Translations under genes and position numbers: made by a program
Part shown: positions 4,660 through 36,244 of the stretch, piece by piece
Layout: every line of letters begins with the position of its first letter
How positions within the stretch are numbered: the first letter of the stretch is position 1
Source of the DNA: a virus
Lineage: Duplodnaviria > Heunggongvirae > Uroviricota > Caudoviricetes
Direction: 5' to 3' (one strand)
Virus record (IMG/VR): IMGVR_UViG_2925908680_000006
DNA length: 37,300 bases
The notes under the pieces: model-generated
Told to the model about the DNA's origin: nothing
Database searches by the model: none
What the model saw: only the letters and a program-made list of their open reading frames with translations

Positions 4660-5171
4660 TGGCTGTGCCAAAACATCTTCGCTTTTTTACGCTGTTTGTG
4701 GATGGTGAAAACGAAGTGGGTAAGGTGACGTCCGTCACTCTGCCTAAGCTGACGCGCAAAACCGACAGCTACCGGGGTGGTGGCATGATGGGGGCGGTAA
4801 GTATTGATCTCGGCCTGGACGACTCCGCGCTTGATGCGAGCTTTGTCATGGGGGGCGCAGTTCGTGAGCTGTTCCTTAAGTATGGCGGCACGATTGACGG
4901 CACACTGCTGCGTTTTGCGGGTGAATACTACACCGATGCAGAAAGCGACCTGTATGAAGTCGAAATGCGCGGACGTGTGACGGAAATTGATATGGGGGAA
5001 GCCAAACAGGGCGAAGCCACATCACACACTTATGCCATTAAAAACACCTACTACAAGCTGAGTGTTAACGATCGCCCGTTGTGGGAGATTGACCTGCTGA
5101 ACTTCATTTACCGGAAGGACGGCAAGGACATTGTGCCCGATCGCATCCGTTCCGCGCTTGGGCTTGGCTGA
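4659..5171 (+). CDS. FII: Tail tube protein FII
   Basis: 170 aa; start overlaps the FI stop (TGATG); size and position match P2 gpFII. Confidence 0.85.
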   Translation: MAVPKHLRFFTLFVDGENEVGKVTSVTLPKLTRKTDSYRGGGMMGAVSIDLGLDDSALDASFVMGGAVRELFLKYGGTIDGTLLRFAGEYYTDAESDLYEVEMRGRVTEIDMGEAKQGEATSHTYAIKNTYYKLSVNDRPLWEIDLLNFIYRKDGKDIVPDRIRSALGLG

Positions 5172-5225
5172 TAAGTAATATGCAGGCGGCGCAGTGCGTC
5201 GCCTCTGACTGAAAGGAGTTTCCTG

Positions 5226-5755: not shown

Positions 5756-8549
5756 TATCCGGGTCGCTTTCAGCGCCGTTGACAGGCTGACCCGACCTGC
5801 CGAAAACGCACGCCGCCTGATGGGGCAGTTTGGTGACTCCATCCAGCGAACGCAGGGGGCGATCAAAAATCTCGAGCGTCAGGCGCGTTCATTTGAGCGC
5901 GCCCGCGACGCTGTCAGTAAAGCGGATGCGGGTATCGTGAAAGCACGACGCCAGCTTAACGCCCTTAATCAGTTACAACGCACGGGTACAGTGCTCAGCG
6001 AAAAACAACAAAAGCTGATGCAGCAGTTAAGCACCCGGCTTGAACGCCTGAATGAATCGCGCACACGGGAAATTCAGAAAATGCGGGAGCTTGGCGGAGA
6101 GCTGAAACGCCACGGCATTTCCCTGACAGGCAGCGATAACACCATCCAGCAGGCCATCAGACGCACCGAACAGTACAACAACCAGCTTGAACGCGAACGG
6201 CAGGCGCTTGCGCGTGTAACGCGGGCGCGTGAGCGGTATTCGCGCGCGCAGGAAACAGCGGGAAAACTGAAAACAGGTGGTGCGCTGGCAATTGGTGCGG
6301 CAGCGGCGGGCGGCTATGCTGCCGGGCGTTTTTTGCAGCCTGCGATCGGGTTCGGGAAAGAGATGTCCCGCGTTCAGGCACTGACGCGAATCGACAAAAA
6401 CAGCCCGCAGTTTAAGGCGCTGCGTGAGCAGGCGTTAAAACTTGGCTCTGAAACGCAGTTCACCGCAGGCGATGCCGCCAGTGGGCAGGCATTTCTTGCA
6501 ATGGCTGGCTTCACACCGCAGGCCATTCAGGCTGCGCTTCCGGGCGTGCTGAGCATGGCAACGGCTGGCGGTATGGACCTTGGCGAGACGGCGGATATTG
6601 GCTCAAATATCCTGACGCAGTTCGGCCTCTCCGCTGACCAGATGGACCGGGTCGGTGACACGCTTACAGCAGCGTTTACCCGTACTAACACTGACCTTCG
6701 CGCGCTGGGCGAAACCATGAAATATGCAGGTCCGGTGGCGGGTAAGCTGGGAATATCGCTGGAGCAGGCCGCAGCGATGGCGGGCGTGCTGGCGAATATG
6801 GGTATCAGAGGGAGTGATGCCGGGACGGCAATGCGTGCCAGCCTGGCTCGTCTGGCATCACCGCCAAAGGCGGCAGCAGAGGCGCTGAAAGAGCTTGGCG
6901 TGTCTGTCTCGGATGCCGGGGGCAAAATGCGCCCGATGGAGGATGTGCTGGCTGACCTTTATAAAGCTACCCGCAAATACGGGGAAGTTGACCGGGTATC
7001 GTTCTTTAAGGACATTGCCGGAGAAGAGGCTTTCACATCATTTATGGCCCTCGTTGATGCGGCAGGTGACGGCTCCTTACCCAAACTGAGAAAAGAACTT
7101 GAAGGCGCGCGCGGTGAGGCTGAACGCACGGCAAAGGTTATGGCCAACAACCTTGACGGCGATCTGAAATCACTCAGCAGTGCATGGGAAGGGTTGCGCA
7201 TCCGCATTGCAGATCTGATTGACGGTCCGCTGCGTTCTGTCACGCAGTGGCTCACGCGTGTGGTATCAAAGGTGACGGCGCTGGCGCAGGCCCATCCCGC
7301 ACTGACGCGCCAGCTACTGATTGCAGGCGGCGCACTGCTGGCAATGACTGCAACGGTTGGCTCGTTGTCGCTGGCTATTGGTGTGCTTGCTGGCCCGCTG
7401 ACAAAACTGCGTCTTGGTTTTTCCCTCCTGACCGGATCAATGAATGCTGTCAGGGTTCTGCCAGCACTATGGGGAATGGTGACGGGTTCCGTTTCTTTAC
7501 TGGGAGGCGCTATCGGGGCGTTGTTCAGTCCGGTTGGTCTTATCGTGGCTGCGCTTGCCGGAGCTGCCGTTCTTATCTGGAAATACTGGGATCCCATCAG
7601 GGCATTTTTTGCCGGGGTGTTCAGCGGGATTATGGAAAGGCTGACCCCGTTGCGCGAAACCTTTGAACGGTTTGGTCCTGTTTTTGACGCAATCGGGAGT
7701 GGGATCAGCCAGGTGTTTAACTGGTTTAAATCGCTGCTGTCACCGATGGAGTCCAGCAAGGAAACGCTGGATAAATGTACCAGTGCTGGCGAGATATTCG
7801 GTAACGTTCTTGGCGGTGCGTTACAACTTGTTCTGACACCTGCAAAAATGTTGCTGGATACGCTGGCGTGGATACTTGAAAAGCTCGGTGTGCTTCCGGA
7901 TGAAGCGGAAAGGGCGCGCAAGAAAATCGAAGACGCACAGCGTGCGGCCATTCTTCAGGACAAGGTTGCCTTGCTTCAGGGGGACCTGGCGAAAATCAAT
8001 CCGCCGAAGCCTGTGGAAAATGGCAATGGCACCGGAGGTGATAAACCCAAAGACAACAAACCGCTCACAGACAGCAATACCGGTACGCTACGCAGACTCA
8101 GCAAAATTGCTGATAACACAGGTAAGCTGGTTGATGAGACGAAAAAACGTATTGGCCCCGGCGATATTGTCTTTAAGAACCTGCCCCGCGCACTTGCCGT
8201 TCGTGGGGAGTGGCAGGAGCGGAAGATTGCGCAGGTCAGTAAGCCTGCCCCCGCAATTAATATCACACCTGTGGTTCCGGCTCCGCTGCCTCCGGCGCTG
8301 GTCCCTGTTGTTGCGGCCAGCTCCCGCCCGGTGGCAGAGGCCATACGATCGCCAGTGGCATCAGTTCCTGCAACTTCCCGTAACCGGGAGCCTGTTGCCT
8401 GCGGATTTGGCGGTGAAATTCATGTTCATCTGCATAACGTTGTTACACAGAATCCCCGCGAACTGGCGAAACTGGTCGGTGAAATGGTCAGGGCAGAAAT
8501 GGAACGGCGCGCCCGTGCCGGGCGTGGCAGTTTTTACGATAAAGATTGA
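5733..8549 (+). CDS. T: Tail tape-measure protein T
   Basis: About 938 aa; coiled-coil N-terminus, Gly/Ala-rich hydrophobic middle; position after E/E'. Confidence 0.9.
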   Translation: MQTMKTLDIRVAFSAVDRLTRPAENARRLMGQFGDSIQRTQGAIKNLERQARSFERARDAVSKADAGIVKARRQLNALNQLQRTGTVLSEKQQKLMQQLSTRLERLNESRTREIQKMRELGGELKRHGISLTGSDNTIQQAIRRTEQYNNQLERERQALARVTRARERYSRAQETAGKLKTGGALAIGAAAAGGYAAGRFLQPAIGFGKEMSRVQALTRIDKNSPQFKALREQALKLGSETQFTAGDAASGQAFLAMAGFTPQAIQAALPGVLSMATAGGMDLGETADIGSNILTQFGLSADQMDRVGDTLTAAFTRTNTDLRALGETMKYAGPVAGKLGISLEQAAAMAGVLANMGIRGSDAGTAMRASLARLASPPKAAAEALKELGVSVSDAGGKMRPMEDVLADLYKATRKYGEVDRVSFFKDIAGEEAFTSFMALVDAAGDGSLPKLRKELEGARGEAERTAKVMANNLDGDLKSLSSAWEGLRIRIADLIDGPLRSVTQWLTRVVSKVTALAQAHPALTRQLLIAGGALLAMTATVGSLSLAIGVLAGPLTKLRLGFSLLTGSMNAVRVLPALWGMVTGSVSLLGGAIGALFSPVGLIVAALAGAAVLIWKYWDPIRAFFAGVFSGIMERLTPLRETFERFGPVFDAIGSGISQVFNWFKSLLSPMESSKETLDKCTSAGEIFGNVLGGALQLVLTPAKMLLDTLAWILEKLGVLPDEAERARKKIEDAQRAAILQDKVALLQGDLAKINPPKPVENGNGTGGDKPKDNKPLTDSNTGTLRRLSKIADNTGKLVDETKKRIGPGDIVFKNLPRALAVRGEWQERKIAQVSKPAPAINITPVVPAPLPPALVPVVAASSRPVAEAIRSPVASVPATSRNREPVACGFGGEIHVHLHNVVTQNPRELAKLVGEMVRAEMERRARAGRGSFYDKD

Positions 8550-8555
8550 GGAGTC

Positions 8556-9050
8556 ATGGCCATGATGATGATCTACGGCATGTTTGTTTTTGAGCTGCGC
8601 ACGCTGCCGCATCAGCAGTTACAGCAAAACAAAAGCTGGCGGCATGTGAAAAATGAACGCGTTAACCGTTCAGCAAGCTGGCAGTATATCGGTGCAGGTG
8701 ATGATCGCATCGTTCTTTCTGGTGTGCTTTATCCTGAAATTACAGGTGGCGAAGTGTCGCTGTCGCTGCTGACCACGCAGGCGTATACAGGACGACCCTG
8801 GCCTTTGATTGATGGCGTCGGGCAGATTTACGGCATGTATGTCCTGACCGGAACGAATACGACCCGTTCCGAGTTTGATCGCTACGGTAAGGCGAAAAAG
8901 ATAGAATTTTCACTGACCCTTGAACGCTGTGATGAGGATTTGCGGGAGCGCCTGCAATCCTCATCGTTCAGCGATATGCTGTCCGGCTTCAAAGATAAGG
9001 TGACATCATCTCTTAACAGCGCGGCCAGTTCAGTTAAAGGGCTGTTCTGA
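8556..9050 (+). CDS. U: Tail protein U
   Basis: 164 aa starting MAMMMIYGMFVF, resembling the remembered P2 gpU N-terminus; follows T. Confidence 0.8.
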   Translation: MAMMMIYGMFVFELRTLPHQQLQQNKSWRHVKNERVNRSASWQYIGAGDDRIVLSGVLYPEITGGEVSLSLLTTQAYTGRPWPLIDGVGQIYGMYVLTGTNTTRSEFDRYGKAKKIEFSLTLERCDEDLRERLQSSSFSDMLSGFKDKVTSSLNSAASSVKGLF

Positions 9051-28726: not shown

Positions 28727-28838
28727 TTTACGGGATTCTAAAATCCCGTTTTTGCCTGTTTTGTGCGCGCTTCATATATCGCTGCGCGTTTTTTGCTCAT
28801 TTACGGGATTCGTGAGTCCCGTTTCTGTCTGTTTTTTG
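28727..28838. repeat. Two related palindromic repeats upstream of parM (parC-like candidate)
   Basis: tttacgggatt-ctaa-aatcccgt at 28727-28750 and tttacggga-ttcgtgag-tcccgt at 28800-28822, each followed by a T-rich ctgttttt segment; the second lies inside the 3' end of gene A. Confidence 0.5.
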
Positions 28839-31594
28839 TTTCCACTGGTCAGGCCACCCCGCAGCAGGTCTGCTTTGCGGCGGGCGCGTTCAGTGGTTTC
28901 ACTGATTCTCTGTGCGTGCTCTGCGTCGCGGATGGCGCGCAGCATGTCAGAAAGCACGGTAACGGGTGTTTTCATGGTGTTCTGGTCCTGCTGAAGTGTG
29001 GATGCCAGGCGTGCGGCGGCTTCAGGGTCTGATGCCCCCAGCTGTGCCAGATAGCTGGCGACCGGGTTATGGCGGATCTCCGTGCTGCTTACGCCGTGAT
29101 TACGGCTCAGGCGCTGCCAGAGCTGCGTGATTCGGCTGTCCGGGCGGGTATCCGGTTTGCGTACAATTTCAAATCCCTGCGGTGCAATGATGCTGCCGTC
29201 AACGTACAGACTGCCGCCCCGTAACAGGTGCTGCATCTGTTGTTCACCGATATGCAGGCCGAGAGATTCAGCAGACTCCCGCCATTCTTTAGCGAGTAAC
29301 TCGTGGTTATCAGGCAAAGGCCGCGGCTGTTTGCGGCTCTGTGTCCAGTTCTGCATTTCATCACTGTTGTTTTTTGCCTGTTTGTCACGCAGCGAACGCA
29401 TCAGCGCCCGGCGTTCGTGCCGTTTCAGTGAGTGCAGCCATTCGTTCACTTCAACACCGTCAGGGATCTGCGGCCACGGTGCTGGCCGTTCTTCCGGCTG
29501 TTCTGTCCCGTTGTTGTCCGTTTCCTGTACACGGGGACAGTTATTGCCACGAGTCCAAGGGGCGGCAGGGCCGCCCTGAAGGTCAAAACCATTTTCGCGG
29601 GCGCTGTCTTCCGCTTCCGGTTTACGTCTTACCAGCTTCCAGTTATCCGGGTGCGTGCACACGCGGGAAGACTCCCCGATGAGCGGCGACCAGATCCCGT
29701 AAATCTGTACACTCTGCTCGCCGTAATCGTTCAGCTCATCTGCGAGGTCGTAGGCGGTGCGAATCAGGTAGTCTTTACGTGGAACAAGTACGCCGCCCTG
29801 TTTTTCAATGTAGGAGGCAAAACACCCGGCATCAGCGGCAGCGAGTACCGCATCCATTGCATCATCCTTCAGCCGTTGCGGGCCTTCCGGGTTGCGTGCC
29901 ATCTGACAGGCAAGGCGGCGGAGTTCACGCCATACCTGACGGGAGGGGATGCCAAAGAACTGGAACTGGCGGACCCGATGAAGACGCGCCCAGCCAATGG
30001 CGCGCTCCACGCTCTCGGCCATTGATTTTCCGGTTTCGTGGTCAACGCGTGGCTTGCCCGTTTTCGGGTCGATGCCATCCACGGCGCGGCTGTCCAGGTT
30101 TTTTCCGATGTAGGTCGCGATATAGCTGGTTGGTGTGCCTTTTGAGCCGTCGACATACTCCGCCTTAAAGCGCGGAGTAATATCATCGCCCAGTTCGTGA
30201 CGATCTTCCTGAATGGCAATATCGCGGGTGATGGCCACGATGCTGTCGATTTCTTCCGGATGAGCAAAGACCATCATATGCCAGTGCACGGTGCCGTCAT
30301 GGTGAGGCTCCACCGTGCGGATGCCATACCAGCGCAGGCCGTCGCGGTTCAGTTTTTTGCGGACCGCCGCAAAAAACGTGTTAACCAGGTAATCGCTGGA
30401 GTCGCGCATGGTGGCCCCGTTCCATTTGGGGTTCGGATGACCGTTCTCCGTTGTTGCGTGGTATTTTGACGGGCAGGTGACAGTCAGAAACACCGCTTTG
30501 TCACCACGGGCTTCGGCCAGAAGTTCCAGCCCCTTCATGGTGGCCATCATTTCTGCCTTACGGTGAACCGGGTTACTTACTCCCGCGTAATACACTGTCT
30601 CGAGATCAATCGTGAACCCGTCTTCATTTTCCAGCATGAAACTTTTCAGGAAATCGCGTGTTTTCTCGCGCTGTGCGCGAAACTCGCTTAACGCGTCCTG
30701 GCTCAGATAGGGCGATGTTTTTCTGGAAACCAGACAGGCGGCGCGGAGTTGTTCTTCTCTCCACTCGCAACGTAACAGCCACAGTTTGCGTTTCCACCAT
30801 TCCGCACAGGTCAGGCGAAGGATTGCGCCCGGCAGCAGCTCCGTGTCCGGTTCGTTCCTCCGGTCTTTGTCTGTTGTCAGTGCGTCATAATGTGGAGGCA
30901 TGGCGTGCAGGTGTAACGCCATGCGGGCCAGCATCTGATACGCCTTCAGCGTTACATCCATGGTCAGTTCGCCATCGGTCGCGCCAAAGCCATCGCAGAG
31001 TTTTTCGAAGGTGCTGCTGAACATCGCCGCCGTCATGGTGGCCAGCGTCTGTATCTGGTGTTTGTTGAGCTGCGGCAGGTAAAGCAAATCGTCCAGGCGT
31101 TCGCGTCCGGCAAGGGAGCGATAACCCGGTGTCAGCCAGCGGTGATCGGTGCAGTCCAGACGTTCGAATATTTTGCGCAGGGTTCCGCGCGCGTAGCGTT
31201 CCGCCTGCCAGCTCTTTTTGCCTTTCTGACGATCGGCTTCCTGCTTCTTGCGCAGGAAGGAGAGGTGGCGAATAAGCGGATCGCGCAGATAGGACGGCAG
31301 CAGGCGCAGCGAGGCCATGGCTTCATCCACCGCGCCGCGTGCCTGTTTTCTGGCGTCTCCTGCCAGTGTGATGGTTTTGTCCTGTTTTTCCTGTGCGTCC
31401 AGGCTTTTATTAATCAGGTTGCCCAGCGGCGTGGCGGAGAACGCCGCATCAGCCATTTCCTGGCGGCGCTCGTTCTCTACCCGGTAGGCATCCAGCCAGG
31501 AGGAAAGCGCGGATTCAGGAGCGGGGATCTCCGTTCCTTCACGCCCCACTGCGTGGCGCGGTTGTTGCCAGTCCCTGATGTACTCTGCCGTCAT
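28772..31594 (-). CDS. A: Rolling-circle replication initiation endonuclease A
   Basis: 940 aa; HUH-type VHWHMMVF motif and the Y-containing TSYIATYIGKN segment as in the P2/186 A family. Confidence 0.88.
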   Translation of the reverse strand: MTAEYIRDWQQPRHAVGREGTEIPAPESALSSWLDAYRVENERRQEMADAAFSATPLGNLINKSLDAQEKQDKTITLAGDARKQARGAVDEAMASLRLLPSYLRDPLIRHLSFLRKKQEADRQKGKKSWQAERYARGTLRKIFERLDCTDHRWLTPGYRSLAGRERLDDLLYLPQLNKHQIQTLATMTAAMFSSTFEKLCDGFGATDGELTMDVTLKAYQMLARMALHLHAMPPHYDALTTDKDRRNEPDTELLPGAILRLTCAEWWKRKLWLLRCEWREEQLRAACLVSRKTSPYLSQDALSEFRAQREKTRDFLKSFMLENEDGFTIDLETVYYAGVSNPVHRKAEMMATMKGLELLAEARGDKAVFLTVTCPSKYHATTENGHPNPKWNGATMRDSSDYLVNTFFAAVRKKLNRDGLRWYGIRTVEPHHDGTVHWHMMVFAHPEEIDSIVAITRDIAIQEDRHELGDDITPRFKAEYVDGSKGTPTSYIATYIGKNLDSRAVDGIDPKTGKPRVDHETGKSMAESVERAIGWARLHRVRQFQFFGIPSRQVWRELRRLACQMARNPEGPQRLKDDAMDAVLAAADAGCFASYIEKQGGVLVPRKDYLIRTAYDLADELNDYGEQSVQIYGIWSPLIGESSRVCTHPDNWKLVRRKPEAEDSARENGFDLQGGPAAPWTRGNNCPRVQETDNNGTEQPEERPAPWPQIPDGVEVNEWLHSLKRHERRALMRSLRDKQAKNNSDEMQNWTQSRKQPRPLPDNHELLAKEWRESAESLGLHIGEQQMQHLLRGGSLYVDGSIIAPQGFEIVRKPDTRPDSRITQLWQRLSRNHGVSSTEIRHNPVASYLAQLGASDPEAAARLASTLQQDQNTMKTPVTVLSDMLRAIRDAEHAQRISETTERARRKADLLRGGLTSGNKKQTETGLTNPVNEQKTRSDI

Positions 31595-31600
31595 AGTGAT

Positions 31601-31966
31601 TTACTTCGTCATGCCATTCAGGGTGTCGCGGCAGACTGTAGCCAGCCTCTGAATTTCCAGCACGGTGTCTTCTGTGTCGGCATGGCGATGTGTGATGCGG
31701 ATGCTGTCGGCAATCACATCGACGATTGCAGAGGATGGGCGCTGGTAAATGCCAATAACGTACGGGGTGCCACCTTCAATGCGGTAAAGCCTGTAATTTC
31801 CCTCGTGGCTGTCAATCATGTAGCGACCATCAATAACAATCTTTCCGTCAGCGAGCTGCGGTACAGGCAGGGATTTCAGGTACATGTCATAACGTTCACG
31901 CACGCGAACGGCAAGATCACGCTCTGTGTTGAGCAGGTATTCAAGAAAGTCGTTGGCGAGAATCAT
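31601..31966 (-). CDS. Hypothetical early protein
   Basis: 121 aa ORF ending 6 nt before the A start. Confidence 0.55.
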   Translation of the reverse strand: MILANDFLEYLLNTERDLAVRVRERYDMYLKSLPVPQLADGKIVIDGRYMIDSHEGNYRLYRIEGGTPYVIGIYQRPSSAIVDVIADSIRITHRHADTEDTVLEIQRLATVCRDTLNGMTK

Positions 31967-32038
31967 TGCGGCAATCCTCTGGTTACAGATGTGCGAAGGC
32001 CTCCCGCCGCAAGGTGCAGGAAAGGCCCGGAACAGGAA

Positions 32039-32269
32039 TTAATGGAGTTTGTTTTGCTGCTGGATGAGCTGTTGAAGCTCGCGCAGATCATCCGCCAGAT
32101 AGCTGAAAACAGCGGATGAATAGAGGTTTGAAAGTTCGCAGCTACGCTCATGCAGCATATTGATGTGCATGATTTTAGCGACGCGGAATGCGCGGGAAAG
32201 TCTGCGGTTGATTTCAGTCTGGATGTGACGACGCTCCGCGATAGTGCGGTGCTGTTTGCGGTTTGCCAT
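32039..32269 (-). CDS. Hypothetical small basic protein
   Basis: 76 aa ORF downstream of the structured intergenic region. Confidence 0.5.
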   Translation of the reverse strand: MANRKQHRTIAERRHIQTEINRRLSRAFRVAKIMHINMLHERSCELSNLYSSAVFSYLADDLRELQQLIQQQNKLH

Positions 32270-32280
32270 GATATGTGGCC

Positions 32281-32500
32281 TCTTGTAGTAAGTTGTGAAA
32301 ACTCACCATCCAGAGCTGCGAAACTGTGGGTGGCGAGACGTACGAGGTTCGCAGTACCGGCTACAAGAGATCCCGGCCCGACCGAAGTCGGCCCCGTACG
32401 CCCCGCCATAATTCTGACGCGAAAAAAACGTGGCAATACAGTACGCACAAAAAAACCGCTGGCGCGGTTGTGCGCTCTTGTAGTCAGCAGGCTGCGAAAC
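32281..32500. promoter_or_regulatory. Intergenic region with three copies of a bipartite motif (ctcttgtag ... ctgcgaa), the middle copy inverted
   Basis: ctcttgtag at 32281 and 32474, ctacaagag at 32364; gctgcgaaac at 32315 and 32490, gttcgcag at 32347. Confidence 0.4.
32447..32469 (-). terminator. Candidate rho-independent terminator (minus strand)
   Basis: aaccgc-tggc-gcggtt hairpin with a run of 7-8 T immediately downstream on the minus strand. Confidence 0.4.
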
Positions 32501-32605
32501 CCGGCACCCGTTTTATGAGGTGCAGCGAAAATGTAACCTGACTGATTGCGGCATGGCAAGCGGTTTTTTTGTGAGAACGGCATACTAAAAAATCCTGATA
32601 CTGCT

Positions 32606-32630
32606 CCGGCCAGCGGTTTGCACTGGCCGG
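32606..32630 (-). terminator. Stem-loop just downstream of the SPFH gene
   Basis: ccggccag / ctggccgg 8-bp GC stem starting 7 nt after the stop; T-run is displaced. Confidence 0.4.
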
Positions 32631-32636
32631 GTGTCA

Positions 32637-33467
32637 TTACTTCACGGGAACGAACGGAACAGCGGTGTTACTGGTCATGTATTGCGGCAGCGTGCCGTTC
32701 CATTTGTTGATCGCTTCCAGCTCCATAACGCCGGGATTCTGGCGCAGAGCTTCACCGCGTAAACGAATGGCGTCGGCTTCAGCCTGGGCTTTTGTGCGAA
32801 TGGCATCAGCCTGTCCGGCAGCTTCTGCGCGCAACATGTTGGCTTCTGCTTCGCGTTGCTTGACTTCCTGTTCGCGTTGCAGGGTTTTCTGGTTTGCCGT
32901 GACTTTGGCGTTAATGCTGTCGATAACGGTTGGCGGATATTCCGGTTTACCGACATAAGAGAGGCTCATGACCTGAATACCGATGGGGGTCATCTCTTCC
33001 TGAATATCTTTAAGTGCTGAATCCAGCAGTTCAGACTTACCACCGTCGATAAACTTATCGGTGGTCATTTTGCTGGCCAGTCGGTTGAGTGCATCGGCGA
33101 TCTTCTGGCGCAGGTCAGTGTCGGTAATGTCGTCCACGCCTTTGCGGTAGGTCTGAAACACCGTGGTAACTTTGGATGGATCAACTTTGTAGGCCACGCC
33201 GATGTGATAGCCGATGGTTGTGCCGTCACTCATCTGGAAGCTGAACGGCTCATCGTAAGTCTTCATTTGTTTGAAGGTCGGGAAGATGTAAACCTCTGTA
33301 TTCCAGCCTGTCCAGTAGCGGCCAACGCCAACTACTTCGCCGACGCCTTTGTCGTCGCCCAGTTTGTTGACTTTGATGCCCACATTACCTGGCTCAACGC
33401 GATCGCAACCAACCAGCAGGATGGCGGCAAAAAGCGGGAGAATCTGAAATAGTCTGAATTTCTTCAT
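32637..33467 (-). CDS. SPFH/band-7 (prohibitin-like) family lipoprotein
   Basis: 276 aa; lipoprotein signal MKKFRLFQILPLFAAILLVGC; C-terminal Ala/Glu-rich coiled-coil typical of SPFH proteins. Confidence 0.7.
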   Translation of the reverse strand: MKKFRLFQILPLFAAILLVGCDRVEPGNVGIKVNKLGDDKGVGEVVGVGRYWTGWNTEVYIFPTFKQMKTYDEPFSFQMSDGTTIGYHIGVAYKVDPSKVTTVFQTYRKGVDDITDTDLRQKIADALNRLASKMTTDKFIDGGKSELLDSALKDIQEEMTPIGIQVMSLSYVGKPEYPPTVIDSINAKVTANQKTLQREQEVKQREAEANMLRAEAAGQADAIRTKAQAEADAIRLRGEALRQNPGVMELEAINKWNGTLPQYMTSNTAVPFVPVK

Positions 33468-33667
33468 TGTTTGATTTCCTTGATGTACTTACTGAAAAGG
33501 CGAACAACGCCTGCCGGGTACAGCATGGCAATGAAAATGCCCAGCAATACCAGGAAGGAGCTGTCTGATGAAATCATTCGGGGGAGTAGTCCTGCATACA
33601 GAATGAGAGAGACGAGGACGCATACCAGCGCCCACATGTATGCGCGAAACCAGGTCTTTTTGTTCAT
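33464..33667 (-). CDS. Small two-helix membrane protein, partner of the SPFH gene
   Basis: 67 aa, two hydrophobic segments; stop overlaps the SPFH start. Confidence 0.55.
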   Translation of the reverse strand: MNKKTWFRAYMWALVCVLVSLILYAGLLPRMISSDSSFLVLLGIFIAMLYPAGVVRLFSKYIKEIKQ

Positions 33668-33678
33668 ATCGCGGTCCT

Positions 33679-33978
33679 TTACTGGTTAAGGAAAAAATCA
33701 AAAACCTTGTCGATGCGTTGCAGTAGCTCTCGTTGCATTGCTTCCGGCGTTTCCGGTTCTCCTGGCGCCTCCAACGTCGCGCAGAAATCCTTGATTTCAT
33801 GATGGAGTGTCAGGCGAATGGCTGGAGCCATGGTTCTGACGTGCTCCAGCTCATCCAGCAGTGCCAGCACGGCAGATGGTGAGAGCATTGCGCGAAACGC
33901 CAGTAATTTTTGATGCGTTGCCATTCGTTGCAGGGCAAATGCCAGTTCGCGTAGTTCCTGGTAGTTGATGGTGCTCAT
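33679..33978 (-). CDS. Hypothetical early protein
   Basis: 99 aa ORF in the early operon. Confidence 0.5.
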   Translation of the reverse strand: MSTINYQELRELAFALQRMATHQKLLAFRAMLSPSAVLALLDELEHVRTMAPAIRLTLHHEIKDFCATLEAPGEPETPEAMQRELLQRIDKVFDFFLNQ

Positions 33979-35846: not shown

Positions 35847-35941
35847 GTGATAATCTCCCTGTTTGGGGTATTTCTTGCGACGGATGCCCCAAATCAAACT
35901 CATTTGTATAAACATTAATACAGACGTTGGAGAATTGCAAC
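35847..35941. promoter_or_regulatory. Immunity switch region (early and repressor promoters/operators) between cox and C
   Basis: About 95 bp between divergent cox and C starts; contains inverted repeat tttgggg ... ccccaaa. Confidence 0.5.
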
Positions 35942-36244
35942 ATGCGTATGACTATTGGAGAGCGCATAAAAATCATGCGTGAAAGCGAGAGACTTACTAG
36001 CCTCCCGGATACAGCAAAAATGCTTGGTTTAAACCGTGATGCTCTGTGGAGATATGAAAGCGGTAAAACTATCCCTAATGCTGAAGTAATTGAGCAAATA
36101 CTAAACAACCCCAGATTTGAGAAATATGCGTTGTGGTTTATGACTGGAAAAATTGCGCCTGAATCCGGGCAGATAGCTCCGGCTCTCGCACACTATGGGC
36201 AAGAGCCAACGGACTTACCCCCATCCGAAAGGAAAATTGGTTAA
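35942..36244 (+). CDS. C: Immunity repressor C (P2 C type)
   Basis: C-terminal FEKYALWFMTGKIAPESGQIAPALAHYGQ is near-identical to remembered P2 C; N-terminal HTH. Confidence 0.9.
   Translation: MRMTIGERIKIMRESERLTSLPDTAKMLGLNRDALWRYESGKTIPNAEVIEQILNNPRFEKYALWFMTGKIAPESGQIAPALAHYGQEPTDLPPSERKIG

Follow-up and report, generated by a model that had tools for sequence, protein, structure and literature searches.

The 37,300-nucleotide stretch of DNA analyzed here (IMG/VR record IMGVR_UViG_2925908680_000006; hereafter the window) is a P88-like prophage of the genus Xuanwuvirus in the Peduoviridae, the P2 family, and our subject is an interval of about 370 bp (positions 32270-32640) between a gene for an SPFH/Band-7 lipoprotein and a gene for a 76-amino-acid (76-aa) protein, in the early operon ahead of replication gene A. 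An Rfam scan of the whole window at curated thresholds yields exactly two matches, both within this interval, both on the minus strand, and both spanning the full model length. The first is an IsrK/P4 seqA-like small RNA at 32523..32449 (RF01394, 66.7 bits against a gathering threshold [GA] of 50, model positions 1-77 of 77), and the second is a C4 antisense RNA, the family of P1/P7 c4 and P4 CI RNA, at 32413..32326 (RF01695, 81.1 bits against a GA of 45, model positions 1-87 of 87, E value 1.4e-14). Matches to both families are found in eight of eight divergent relatives including P88, with scores of 53-72 bits for isrK and 77-84 bits for C4. The minus strand is also the coding strand for every flanking gene. 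The initial annotation of this interval had described a thrice-repeated bipartite motif together with candidate terminators, and had suggested an attenuator, a small RNA, or an operator array; the strand, the two RNA genes, and the overlap of a target site with a ribosome-binding site had escaped it. Because all of the genes and RNAs lie on the minus strand, the motif copy that it counted first is the most downstream one.

The motif itself is exactly as first reported. The 9-mer CTCTTGTAG occurs three times in the window, at 32280-32288 (plus strand), 32361-32369 (minus), and 32475-32483 (plus), compared with 0.07 occurrences expected from shuffled sequences, and the bipartite arrangement CTCTTGTAG-N(4-30)-CTGCGAA is present only at 32280-32322 (plus), 32348-32369 (minus), and 32475-32498 (plus), with an expectation of 0.00. 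All three copies, the middle one inverted, therefore fall inside 32270-32636, far beyond chance. On the transcribed strand we designate the two halves of the copy within IsrK a1 and b1, those within C4 a' and b', and those downstream of C4 a2 and b2.

The IsrK RNA is laid out as a 5' hairpin, a second hairpin with b1 (UUCGCAG, 32492-32498) in its loop, a single-stranded linker holding a1 (CUACAAGAG, 32475-32483), and a predicted intrinsic terminator, for which the terminator scan gives a stem at 32469..32454 and a U7 run at 32455..32449, matching the minus-strand hairpin and T7 tract noted earlier. A promoter scan places a predicted sigma-70 promoter, the counterpart of P4 PLE, at 32559..32530 on the minus strand, with a -35 hexamer TTGCCA (32559..32554), an 18-nt spacer, and a -10 hexamer TACATT (32535..32530); the start expected from it, at approximately 32523, coincides with position 1 of the isrK model. 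Neither hexamer varies in our comparative set, in which 80 IMG/VR loci, P88, and one Escherichia coli prophage gave 40 distinct module sequences with a mean identity of 91%. The predicted promoter-like site, the terminator-like site, and a1/b1 are thus all at the places expected for the family. The Rfam c4-a1b1 motif (RF03163) scores 19.6 bits, below its cutoff of 46.7 bits (the P4 sequence scores 44.1 bits), and overlaps isrK, which describes the stretch better.

A T7 tract on the plus strand (32562-32568) had likewise been listed as a candidate terminator, and this part of the earlier description did not hold, as the terminator scan predicts no plus-strand terminator there. A plus-strand reading of the region was ruled out on this basis and because both RNA matches are on the minus strand. 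Read on that strand, the tract is an A7 run complementary to the U-tract of the IsrK terminator, and forms part of an inverted repeat (I1) of 28 nt with 82% complementarity, in which an upstream arm (32556..32583, minus strand, containing CACAAAAAAACCGCUUGC) is set against the 3' half of the IsrK terminator and its U-tract (32436-32463). The minimum free energy (MFE) fold of 32590..32440 takes the I1 pairing over the terminator hairpin (-54.7 kcal/mol, z-score -3.69). Both arms are invariant in relatives and hence carry no covariation signal. The upstream arm is a candidate antiterminator, and a role limited to transcripts that start upstream of the IsrK promoter is a speculative reading of the folding model.

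The C4 RNA folds (MFE, -47 kcal/mol; z-score -4.18) into the family consensus structure. A 17-bp closing stem (32408..32392 paired with 32347..32331) encloses hairpin 1 (32391..32378) and hairpin 2 (32377..32356, with a 12-nt loop), and is followed by a 3' tail, CCCAC (32330..32326), which together with the closing-stem A at 32331 reads ACCCAC. The GNRA-like hairpin reported previously does exist as a hairpin (32378-32391), but its loop on the transcribed minus strand is UUCG, a UNCG tetraloop, and it is hairpin 1 of C4. All three helices are 100% paired across the 40 modules, with double-sided changes in four stem pairs. The recognition sequence a' (CUCUUGUAG, 32369..32361) lies in the loop of hairpin 2, and b' (CUGCGAA, 32354..32348) in the 8-nt junction that precedes the closing stem; the inverted motif copy thus occupies positions that are single-stranded in the C4 family. 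The suggestion of a small RNA is borne out to this extent, the middle copy being the recognition part of a C4 antisense RNA by its Rfam match. By analogy with P1 c4 and P4 CI, the 5' end of C4 is probably cut by RNase P; the P1 c4 precursor is reported to be an RNase P substrate (Hartmann 1995). The invariant ACC(C) that follows the closing stem resembles a tRNA 3' end, which is a sequence hint only for maturation by RNase P. We also considered a separate C4 promoter at 32436..32408, but its -10 element lies on the C4 leader, its start would fall inside the 5' stem, and its -35 element and spacer vary among relatives, so that it is probably spurious.

Between 4 and 46 nt past C4 is the putative C4 target (32279..32322, minus strand), recognized by sequence and covariation, in the leader of the 76-aa gene (32039..32269, minus strand). 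It consists of b2 (UUCGCAG, 32322..32316), a 27-nt spacer, and a2 (CUACAAGAG, 32288..32280), and a2 overlaps the Shine-Dalgarno sequence AAGAGG (32284..32279), which stands 9 nt ahead of the ATG at 32269..32267. In all of the types represented by the 40 modules a2 abuts or overlaps the Shine-Dalgarno sequence, and the overlap is present in P4 too. Residues 8-67 of the 76-aa protein match the Pfam family Derepression (PF25738; 30.1 bits, GA 27), BLASTP aligns it with the P4 epsilon protein at 30% identity over 66 aa (E value 2e-9), and the gene is annotated as "derepression protein" in P88 and RefSeq. By these sequence comparisons the protein is a homologue, as a marginal family member, of the epsilon helper-derepression (anti-repressor) protein of P4. 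Among 50,697 phage records it is found only in the P88 group, and among species-representative genomes at three loci, in Escherichia albertii, Salmonella, and a "Vagococcus" assembly that is probably contaminated. No relatives of the protein were found in the PDB.

Nearly all variation among the 40 modules falls within the three a and three b boxes, which change together. In the a1-a' duplex, seven of nine pairs are changed on both sides, and in b1-b' four of seven; in a'-a2, six of nine, and in b'-b2 again four of seven, so that double-sided changes affect 21 of the 32 duplex base pairs (16 for each flanking target). Every cell is paired in three of these duplexes (100%), and 96.4% of cells are paired in a'-a2; sliding the partner by one to three columns reduces pairing to about 40%. 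Neither the observed covariation score nor the share of paired cells was attained by any shuffle, and the number of double-sided pairs was reached by 0 of 500 and 1 of 500; the count of further pair types is not above that of the shuffles, 110 of 500 and 310 of 500 of which reached it. The modules comprise 12 a-types and 5 b-types in 15 combinations, with other natural a'/b' types including CUUUGGUUG and GUUCCAA, and the a'/a2 pairing is specific to type, with 8 or 9 of 9 positions pairing in cognate combinations and a mean of 5.5 in noncognate ones. The layout is unchanged in Citrobacter phage phiSM and in relatives in Salmonella and E. albertii, which contribute further combinations and a 13th a-type. 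Covariation analysis against homologous prophages was among the checks that the initial annotation itself had proposed, and it finds the repeats present and the structure conserved in these relatives. The proposal that the middle copy could pair with either flanking copy as alternative RNA structures, controlling the genes leading into A, is supported, as both pairings are backed by compensatory changes. The locus with the Vagococcus label (NZ_JBQPOM010000071.1, "Vagococcus sp. WN89Y"; our locus L167) contains an IsrK-C4-epsilon module of enterobacterial, P88-like type whose a-type is new (a' CUUCGUUAG), and its Gram-positive attribution probably reflects assembly contamination or mislabeling.

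Concerted change of three repeated sites, one of them inverted, would also be expected of DNA operators bound by a sequence-specific protein that evolves with them, as in the operator array first suggested. However, interior exceptions to complementarity are all G·U on the transcribed strand, the sole nonpairs being at a terminal and a subterminal a'-a2 pair; such wobble exceptions are predicted by RNA pairing and not by a DNA operator. The a and b halves reassort independently with spacings that vary (6, 8, and 27 nt), and the middle copy lies in the loop and junction of an RNA that is defined by a covariance model and has stem covariation of its own. In addition, the homologous systems are RNA-based by experiment, and no candidate covarying DNA-binding protein is encoded beside the module. 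The compensatory variation supports RNA-RNA pairing and argues against an operator array, which we rejected on the G·U pattern and RNA context and to which we assign an almost negligible probability. A search for a LexA/SOS operator, with one mismatch allowed, found no CTGT-N8-ACAG-like site in 32270-32640.

The region had also been described as lacking a credible open reading frame (ORF). There is indeed no ordinary protein gene, but a 224-codon frame (31963..32637, minus strand) spans the region and is kept open in relatives. Its conserved ATG, at 32583, is upstream of the IsrK -35 hexamer (32559), and in the window it can be extended to an ATG at 32637 that overlaps the SPFH stop codon as TAATG. 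The frame crosses IsrK, C4, the target sites, and the whole of the 76-aa gene, which it overprints in the +1 frame, and ends in an ATGA (31966..31963) on the start codon of the next gene. It is open in 79 of 83 loci and in four of four more distant relatives, Citrobacter, E. albertii, and Salmonella among these. Homology among relatives begins at approximately 32573-32583, immediately upstream of the IsrK promoter, and the conserved ATG is kept 9-53 nt behind the stops of several different upstream genes. Stop codons in the other two frames are polymorphic at appreciable frequency, including in the hypervariable boxes, and those in the long-ORF frame are singletons only. The translation matches Pfam PF10554 (Phage_ASH) weakly, at 21.4 bits against a GA of 26; the P4 eta ORF scores 82.2 bits.

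A purely protein-coding explanation, in which the repeats would be incidental to a gene for an "Ash family protein" or "transcriptional regulator," can draw on the conserved open frame and on existing annotations. The NCBI annotation pipeline PGAP places an "ash family protein" pseudogene over the two RNA genes, and PHROGs 995, 6928, and 821 ("transcriptional regulator/repressor"), like PF10554, match the translation across IsrK-C4, weakly so in the window. Nevertheless, the variation is compensatory between RNA pairs and clusters in loops instead of following codons; the scores of two covariance models greatly exceed their thresholds where the Ash match is below the Pfam cutoff; over its downstream half the ORF shares its DNA with a conserved gene read in another frame; and the Ash family is itself a translation across P4 seqA-CI (the eta or old "cI" ORF). 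Translation of the frame in the manner of eta would be compatible with the RNA explanation and no substitute for it. As the sole explanation we rejected the protein-coding gene, on the compensatory variation, the Rfam scores, and the subthreshold Ash match, and regard it as highly improbable. The same artifact takes other forms elsewhere: the P88 GenBank record has a hypothetical coding sequence on the opposite strand over the RNAs, and the misannotated stretches are at 31963-32637 in the window, 6918-7181 in locus L002, and 5033-5221 in locus L001. A survey of P4 satellites used PF10554 as its marker for epsilon (PMC8628076). We find that P4 epsilon belongs to PF25738, not PF10554.

The closest parallel to this arrangement is satellite P4 (NC_001609), in which we locate isrK at 8692..8615 (60.8 bits) and C4 at 8507..8420, followed by b2 (GTGAGAA), a2 (TTCACAGG) fused to the Shine-Dalgarno sequence of kil, and then epsilon. 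In both elements an epsilon homologue is preceded, on its own strand, by the identical pair of Rfam families in the same order, with bipartite a/b complementarity of CI/C4 to upstream and downstream sites, of which the downstream a-site overlaps the Shine-Dalgarno sequence of the first ORF. They also share a promoter of the same design immediately ahead of IsrK/seqA; a long ORF whose start precedes that promoter and whose frame crosses the RNAs (in P4, the documented eta gene, 8812..8168, which shares its frame with the 65-aa kil sequence); an operon that closes with a replication gene; and combinatorial a'/b' diversification among relatives. IsrK and C4 have been recognized as structural homologues of P4 seqA and CI RNA (PMC3632133, Barquist et al.). 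There are also differences. The window is no satellite but a P2-type phage, complete with integrase, virion genes, and a C repressor/Cox switch of its own; its first controlled gene is the epsilon homologue, 56 nt past C4, whereas P4 has kil first and epsilon 245 nt past C4; and its distal replication gene encodes the rolling-circle endonuclease gpA, whereas that of P4 encodes the alpha primase-helicase. Among 80 P4-like satellite loci from IMG/VR (L084-L163) with 96-99% identical epsilon, seven a' loop types and three b' types are reassorted. No a or b type is common to these 80 loci and the P88-like set, and cross-talk between helper and satellite was set aside, there being no shared type and no evidence of cross-immunity in this sample. 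One P88-like b' type and one P4 b' type are reverse complements of each other, which is within chance by a rough, uncomputed estimate of about three variable positions.

A second parallel is the immI region of P1 and P7 (a1 b1 - c4 - a2 b2 - icd - ant1/2), reportedly described by Citron and Schuster (1990) and Biere (1992). There too a C4 family RNA has recognition sequences complementary to sites before and after its gene, the ribosome-binding site of the first downstream ORF lies within the target, and heteroimmunity arises from differences in specificity that are matched by compensatory changes. An anti-repressor directed against a separate protein repressor is the output, which makes this a secondary immunity layer beside the primary repressor. 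In P1 the C4 RNA is required to keep the anti-repressor Ant (ant) off (PMC8198154). The downstream proteins are unrelated, however (icd/ant in place of an epsilon-like and a 121-aa protein), the P1 operon promoter is under C1 operator control where the window has no evident operator, and in the window the upstream a1/b1 element is a terminated IsrK-type small RNA and the operon runs on into the replication gene. The phage-plasmid N15, which differs from the window in phage type and output genes, uses a structurally similar system (PMC3632133). The third parallel is the lambdoid Salmonella prophage Gifsy-1, considered below with the role of IsrK. For N15, Ravin (1999) reportedly described an anti-immunity locus (CA RNA - antA/B/C) in which a small processed RNA controls anti-repressor genes by premature termination.

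From these observations and parallels we consider it very probable that the region 32270-32640 on the minus strand is an IsrK-C4 antisense-RNA immunity module of the P4 and P1/P7 type within a P88-like early operon, acting as follows. The promoter at 32559..32530 would be constitutive and give an IsrK RNA of about 75 nt that stops at its own terminator. Transcripts that read through, and those derived from further upstream, would carry the C4 precursor, which would be trimmed to a stable RNA of about 80 nt exposing two single-stranded addresses, a' in the hairpin loop and b' in the junction. These would pair with b2 and a2 in the leader of the next gene, and because a2 overlaps the Shine-Dalgarno sequence, we propose that the pairing blocks translation of the 76-aa epsilon-like anti-repressor. 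The untranslated RNA would probably be ended early by Rho-dependent polarity, and such premature termination would keep the 121-aa gene and replication gene A off in the lysogen as well. The a1/b1 sites of IsrK, which may pair with the same C4 sequences both in cis (in read-through RNA) and in trans (as free IsrK), would compete for or assist C4, and so modulate its availability or the efficiency with which transcription stops. Finally, transcripts from the upstream early promoter would carry the start of the long ORF and could be translated across the module like P4 eta, which would render lytic transcription insensitive to C4. We have moderate confidence, by analogy, that early-promoter transcripts escape C4 in this way and that those from the internal IsrK promoter could not be so translated. 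In P4, eta is reported to be translated only from an upstream late promoter, in coupling to the preceding gene, and its translation to prevent immunity-dependent termination (PMC10111431).

Two variants of this scheme shift its emphasis. In the first, modeled on P4, pairing of C4 with a1/b1 and a2/b2 on the nascent transcript would directly cause premature termination, instead of occluding the ribosome-binding site, and its main purpose would be shutting off gene A and not the epsilon-like gene. The layout is closest to that of P4 (isrK, C4, targets, epsilon, and replication gene), both flanking copies are equally well conserved and covarying, and P4 CI RNA is described as a termination factor pairing with seqA and seqC (PMC4825925, PMC10111431). 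Against this, a2 overlaps the Shine-Dalgarno sequence in all types and there is no mapped Rho-dependent terminator. Termination in P4 itself probably follows blocked translation of the first ORF (PMC10111431; reportedly also Forti 1999), which would make the two events successive steps and not alternatives. We think direct termination rather unlikely as the primary event.

The second variant follows Gifsy-1 (isrK - orf45/STnc1160 - anrP), which resembles the window in having an IsrK small RNA with its own promoter and a leaky terminator, a cis-pairing read-through transcript, a processed stable RNA downstream, and an anti-repressor-type output gene. In Gifsy-1 the IsrK terminator is read through, the read-through RNA pairs in cis with the downstream C4-like region, and its translation is activated in trans by IsrK (PMC4825925); the processed downstream RNA STnc1160 depends on the isrK promoter, and IsrK is needed for prophage induction (PMC4825925). 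By this reasoning short IsrK would pair in trans with a'/b' of C4 or of the read-through mRNA, free the ribosome-binding site, and turn on the anti-repressor, with the IsrK level deciding induction. The MFE fold of the read-through RNA of the window does pair a1/b1 with a'/b' in cis, and a1/b1 is kept perfectly complementary to C4. Conversely, the P4 seqA region is needed to establish immunity (PMC3632133) and does not serve induction, although the two roles are not exclusive. Gifsy-1 further differs in its outputs (AnrP, then AntQ) and in that IsrK has been shown there as an activator, with the C4-like RNA treated as orf45 and its antisense role left open; Hfq binding by IsrK and its trans activation of read-through mRNA are known for Gifsy-1 only. 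We doubt that IsrK is chiefly an inducer here, but P4-style termination and Gifsy-style activation are variants within one system. The term "attenuator," also used initially, captures the cis pairing predicted in the read-through transcript, for which there is experimental demonstration in the Gifsy-1 homologue, but not a trans-acting antisense system, which is no classical leader attenuator.

Several considerations weigh against the IsrK-C4 immunity interpretation. The promoter and terminator are predicted, as are processing and regulation; the fold of IsrK in isolation is no more stable than that of shuffled sequences (z-score -0.89); and the source of the C4 transcripts is in doubt, given that the second promoter-like site is probably spurious. 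The epsilon-like match is marginal, at 30.1 bits against a cutoff of 27, and the protein is 19 residues shorter than P4 epsilon. Unlike P4, the window lacks kil, and its long ORF overprints the first immunity-controlled gene out of frame, where eta is nested; the Ash score of this ORF is below threshold, and its openness in close relatives could be partly a by-product of the conserved RNA sequence. Lastly, the relatives share ancestry, so the shuffle statistics overstate their independence, although the reassortment of 12 a-types and 5 b-types nonetheless implies that many events were independent.

The gene order is int, C, cox, early genes, SPFH in some, module, "derepression protein," a hypothetical gene, and the replication endonuclease, and the order from the module onward is identical in P88, phiSM, and E. 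coli prophages. In the window the C repressor gene is at 35927-36244. The hypothetical gene (31966..31601, minus strand; 121 aa, PHROG 3237, unknown function) is distal in the same transcription unit; for its product, Pfam, NCBIfam, and the PDB gave no relative, and it does not resemble P4 ORF151. The replication endonuclease gpA (31594..28772, minus strand; 940 aa; Pfam Phage_GPA, 437 bits) is unusually long, its Phage_GPA domain covering residues 179-503 only, with about 180 N-terminal and about 440 C-terminal residues having no Pfam assignment. Upstream, the SPFH gene (33467..32637, minus strand, 276 aa) and an overlapping gene for a 67-aa membrane protein form a cassette (32637-33667, minus strand), which separates the RNA module from a conserved early gene for a 99-aa protein (33679-33978). 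The cassette is present in about 30 of 82 related loci; where it is missing, 11 nt lie between the stop of the 99-aa gene and the conserved long-ORF ATG. Six nucleotides past the SPFH stop codon is a perfect 8-bp hairpin, CCGGCCAG-N9-CTGGCCGG (32606-32630, minus strand), with a T6 run 12 nt beyond it, which is part of the cassette and not a canonical terminator. Defense-system profiles gave no match to the cassette or to neighboring genes.

The IsrK-C4 module is therefore of a known kind, but we have not found it described in this setting, a P2-type helper phage in which it would gate an epsilon-like gene and gpA; a search of one literature library returned no paper describing a C4/IsrK module in P88, phiSM, or other P2-type helper phages, and a large survey of P4 states that, of the P4 genes, delta alone has clear homologues in P2-like phages (PMC8628076). 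As a tentative view, possible though short of probable, P88-like phages may carry the whole logic of the P4 left operon before gene A, comprising a constitutive promoter, seqA/IsrK, CI/C4, seqC, an eta-like ORF, and an epsilon-like anti-repressor, with the P4 immunity module shared with or taken from helper-type phages, and with a two-part, reassorting address code of at least 13 a-types and 5 b-types acting as an additional level of immunity that controls self-derepression and replication and splits one genus into many heteroimmune classes. The region is 90% identical to that of P88 and 96-98% identical to that of many E. coli prophages, and its 2-kb neighborhood is matched in 1652 of 5426 complete genomes; the module thus explains conspicuous and very common E. 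coli prophage DNA to which annotation pipelines have given labels as different as "ash family" pseudogene, "transcriptional regulator," and, on the wrong strand, hypothetical protein. If the mechanism is true, P2-type phages of the P88 group have an RNA-based second layer of immunity over an anti-repressor and a replication gene, with a modular two-site specificity code that would be easily reprogrammed through its 9-nt and 7-nt boxes, and the shared regulatory module links helper phages with their P4-like parasites.

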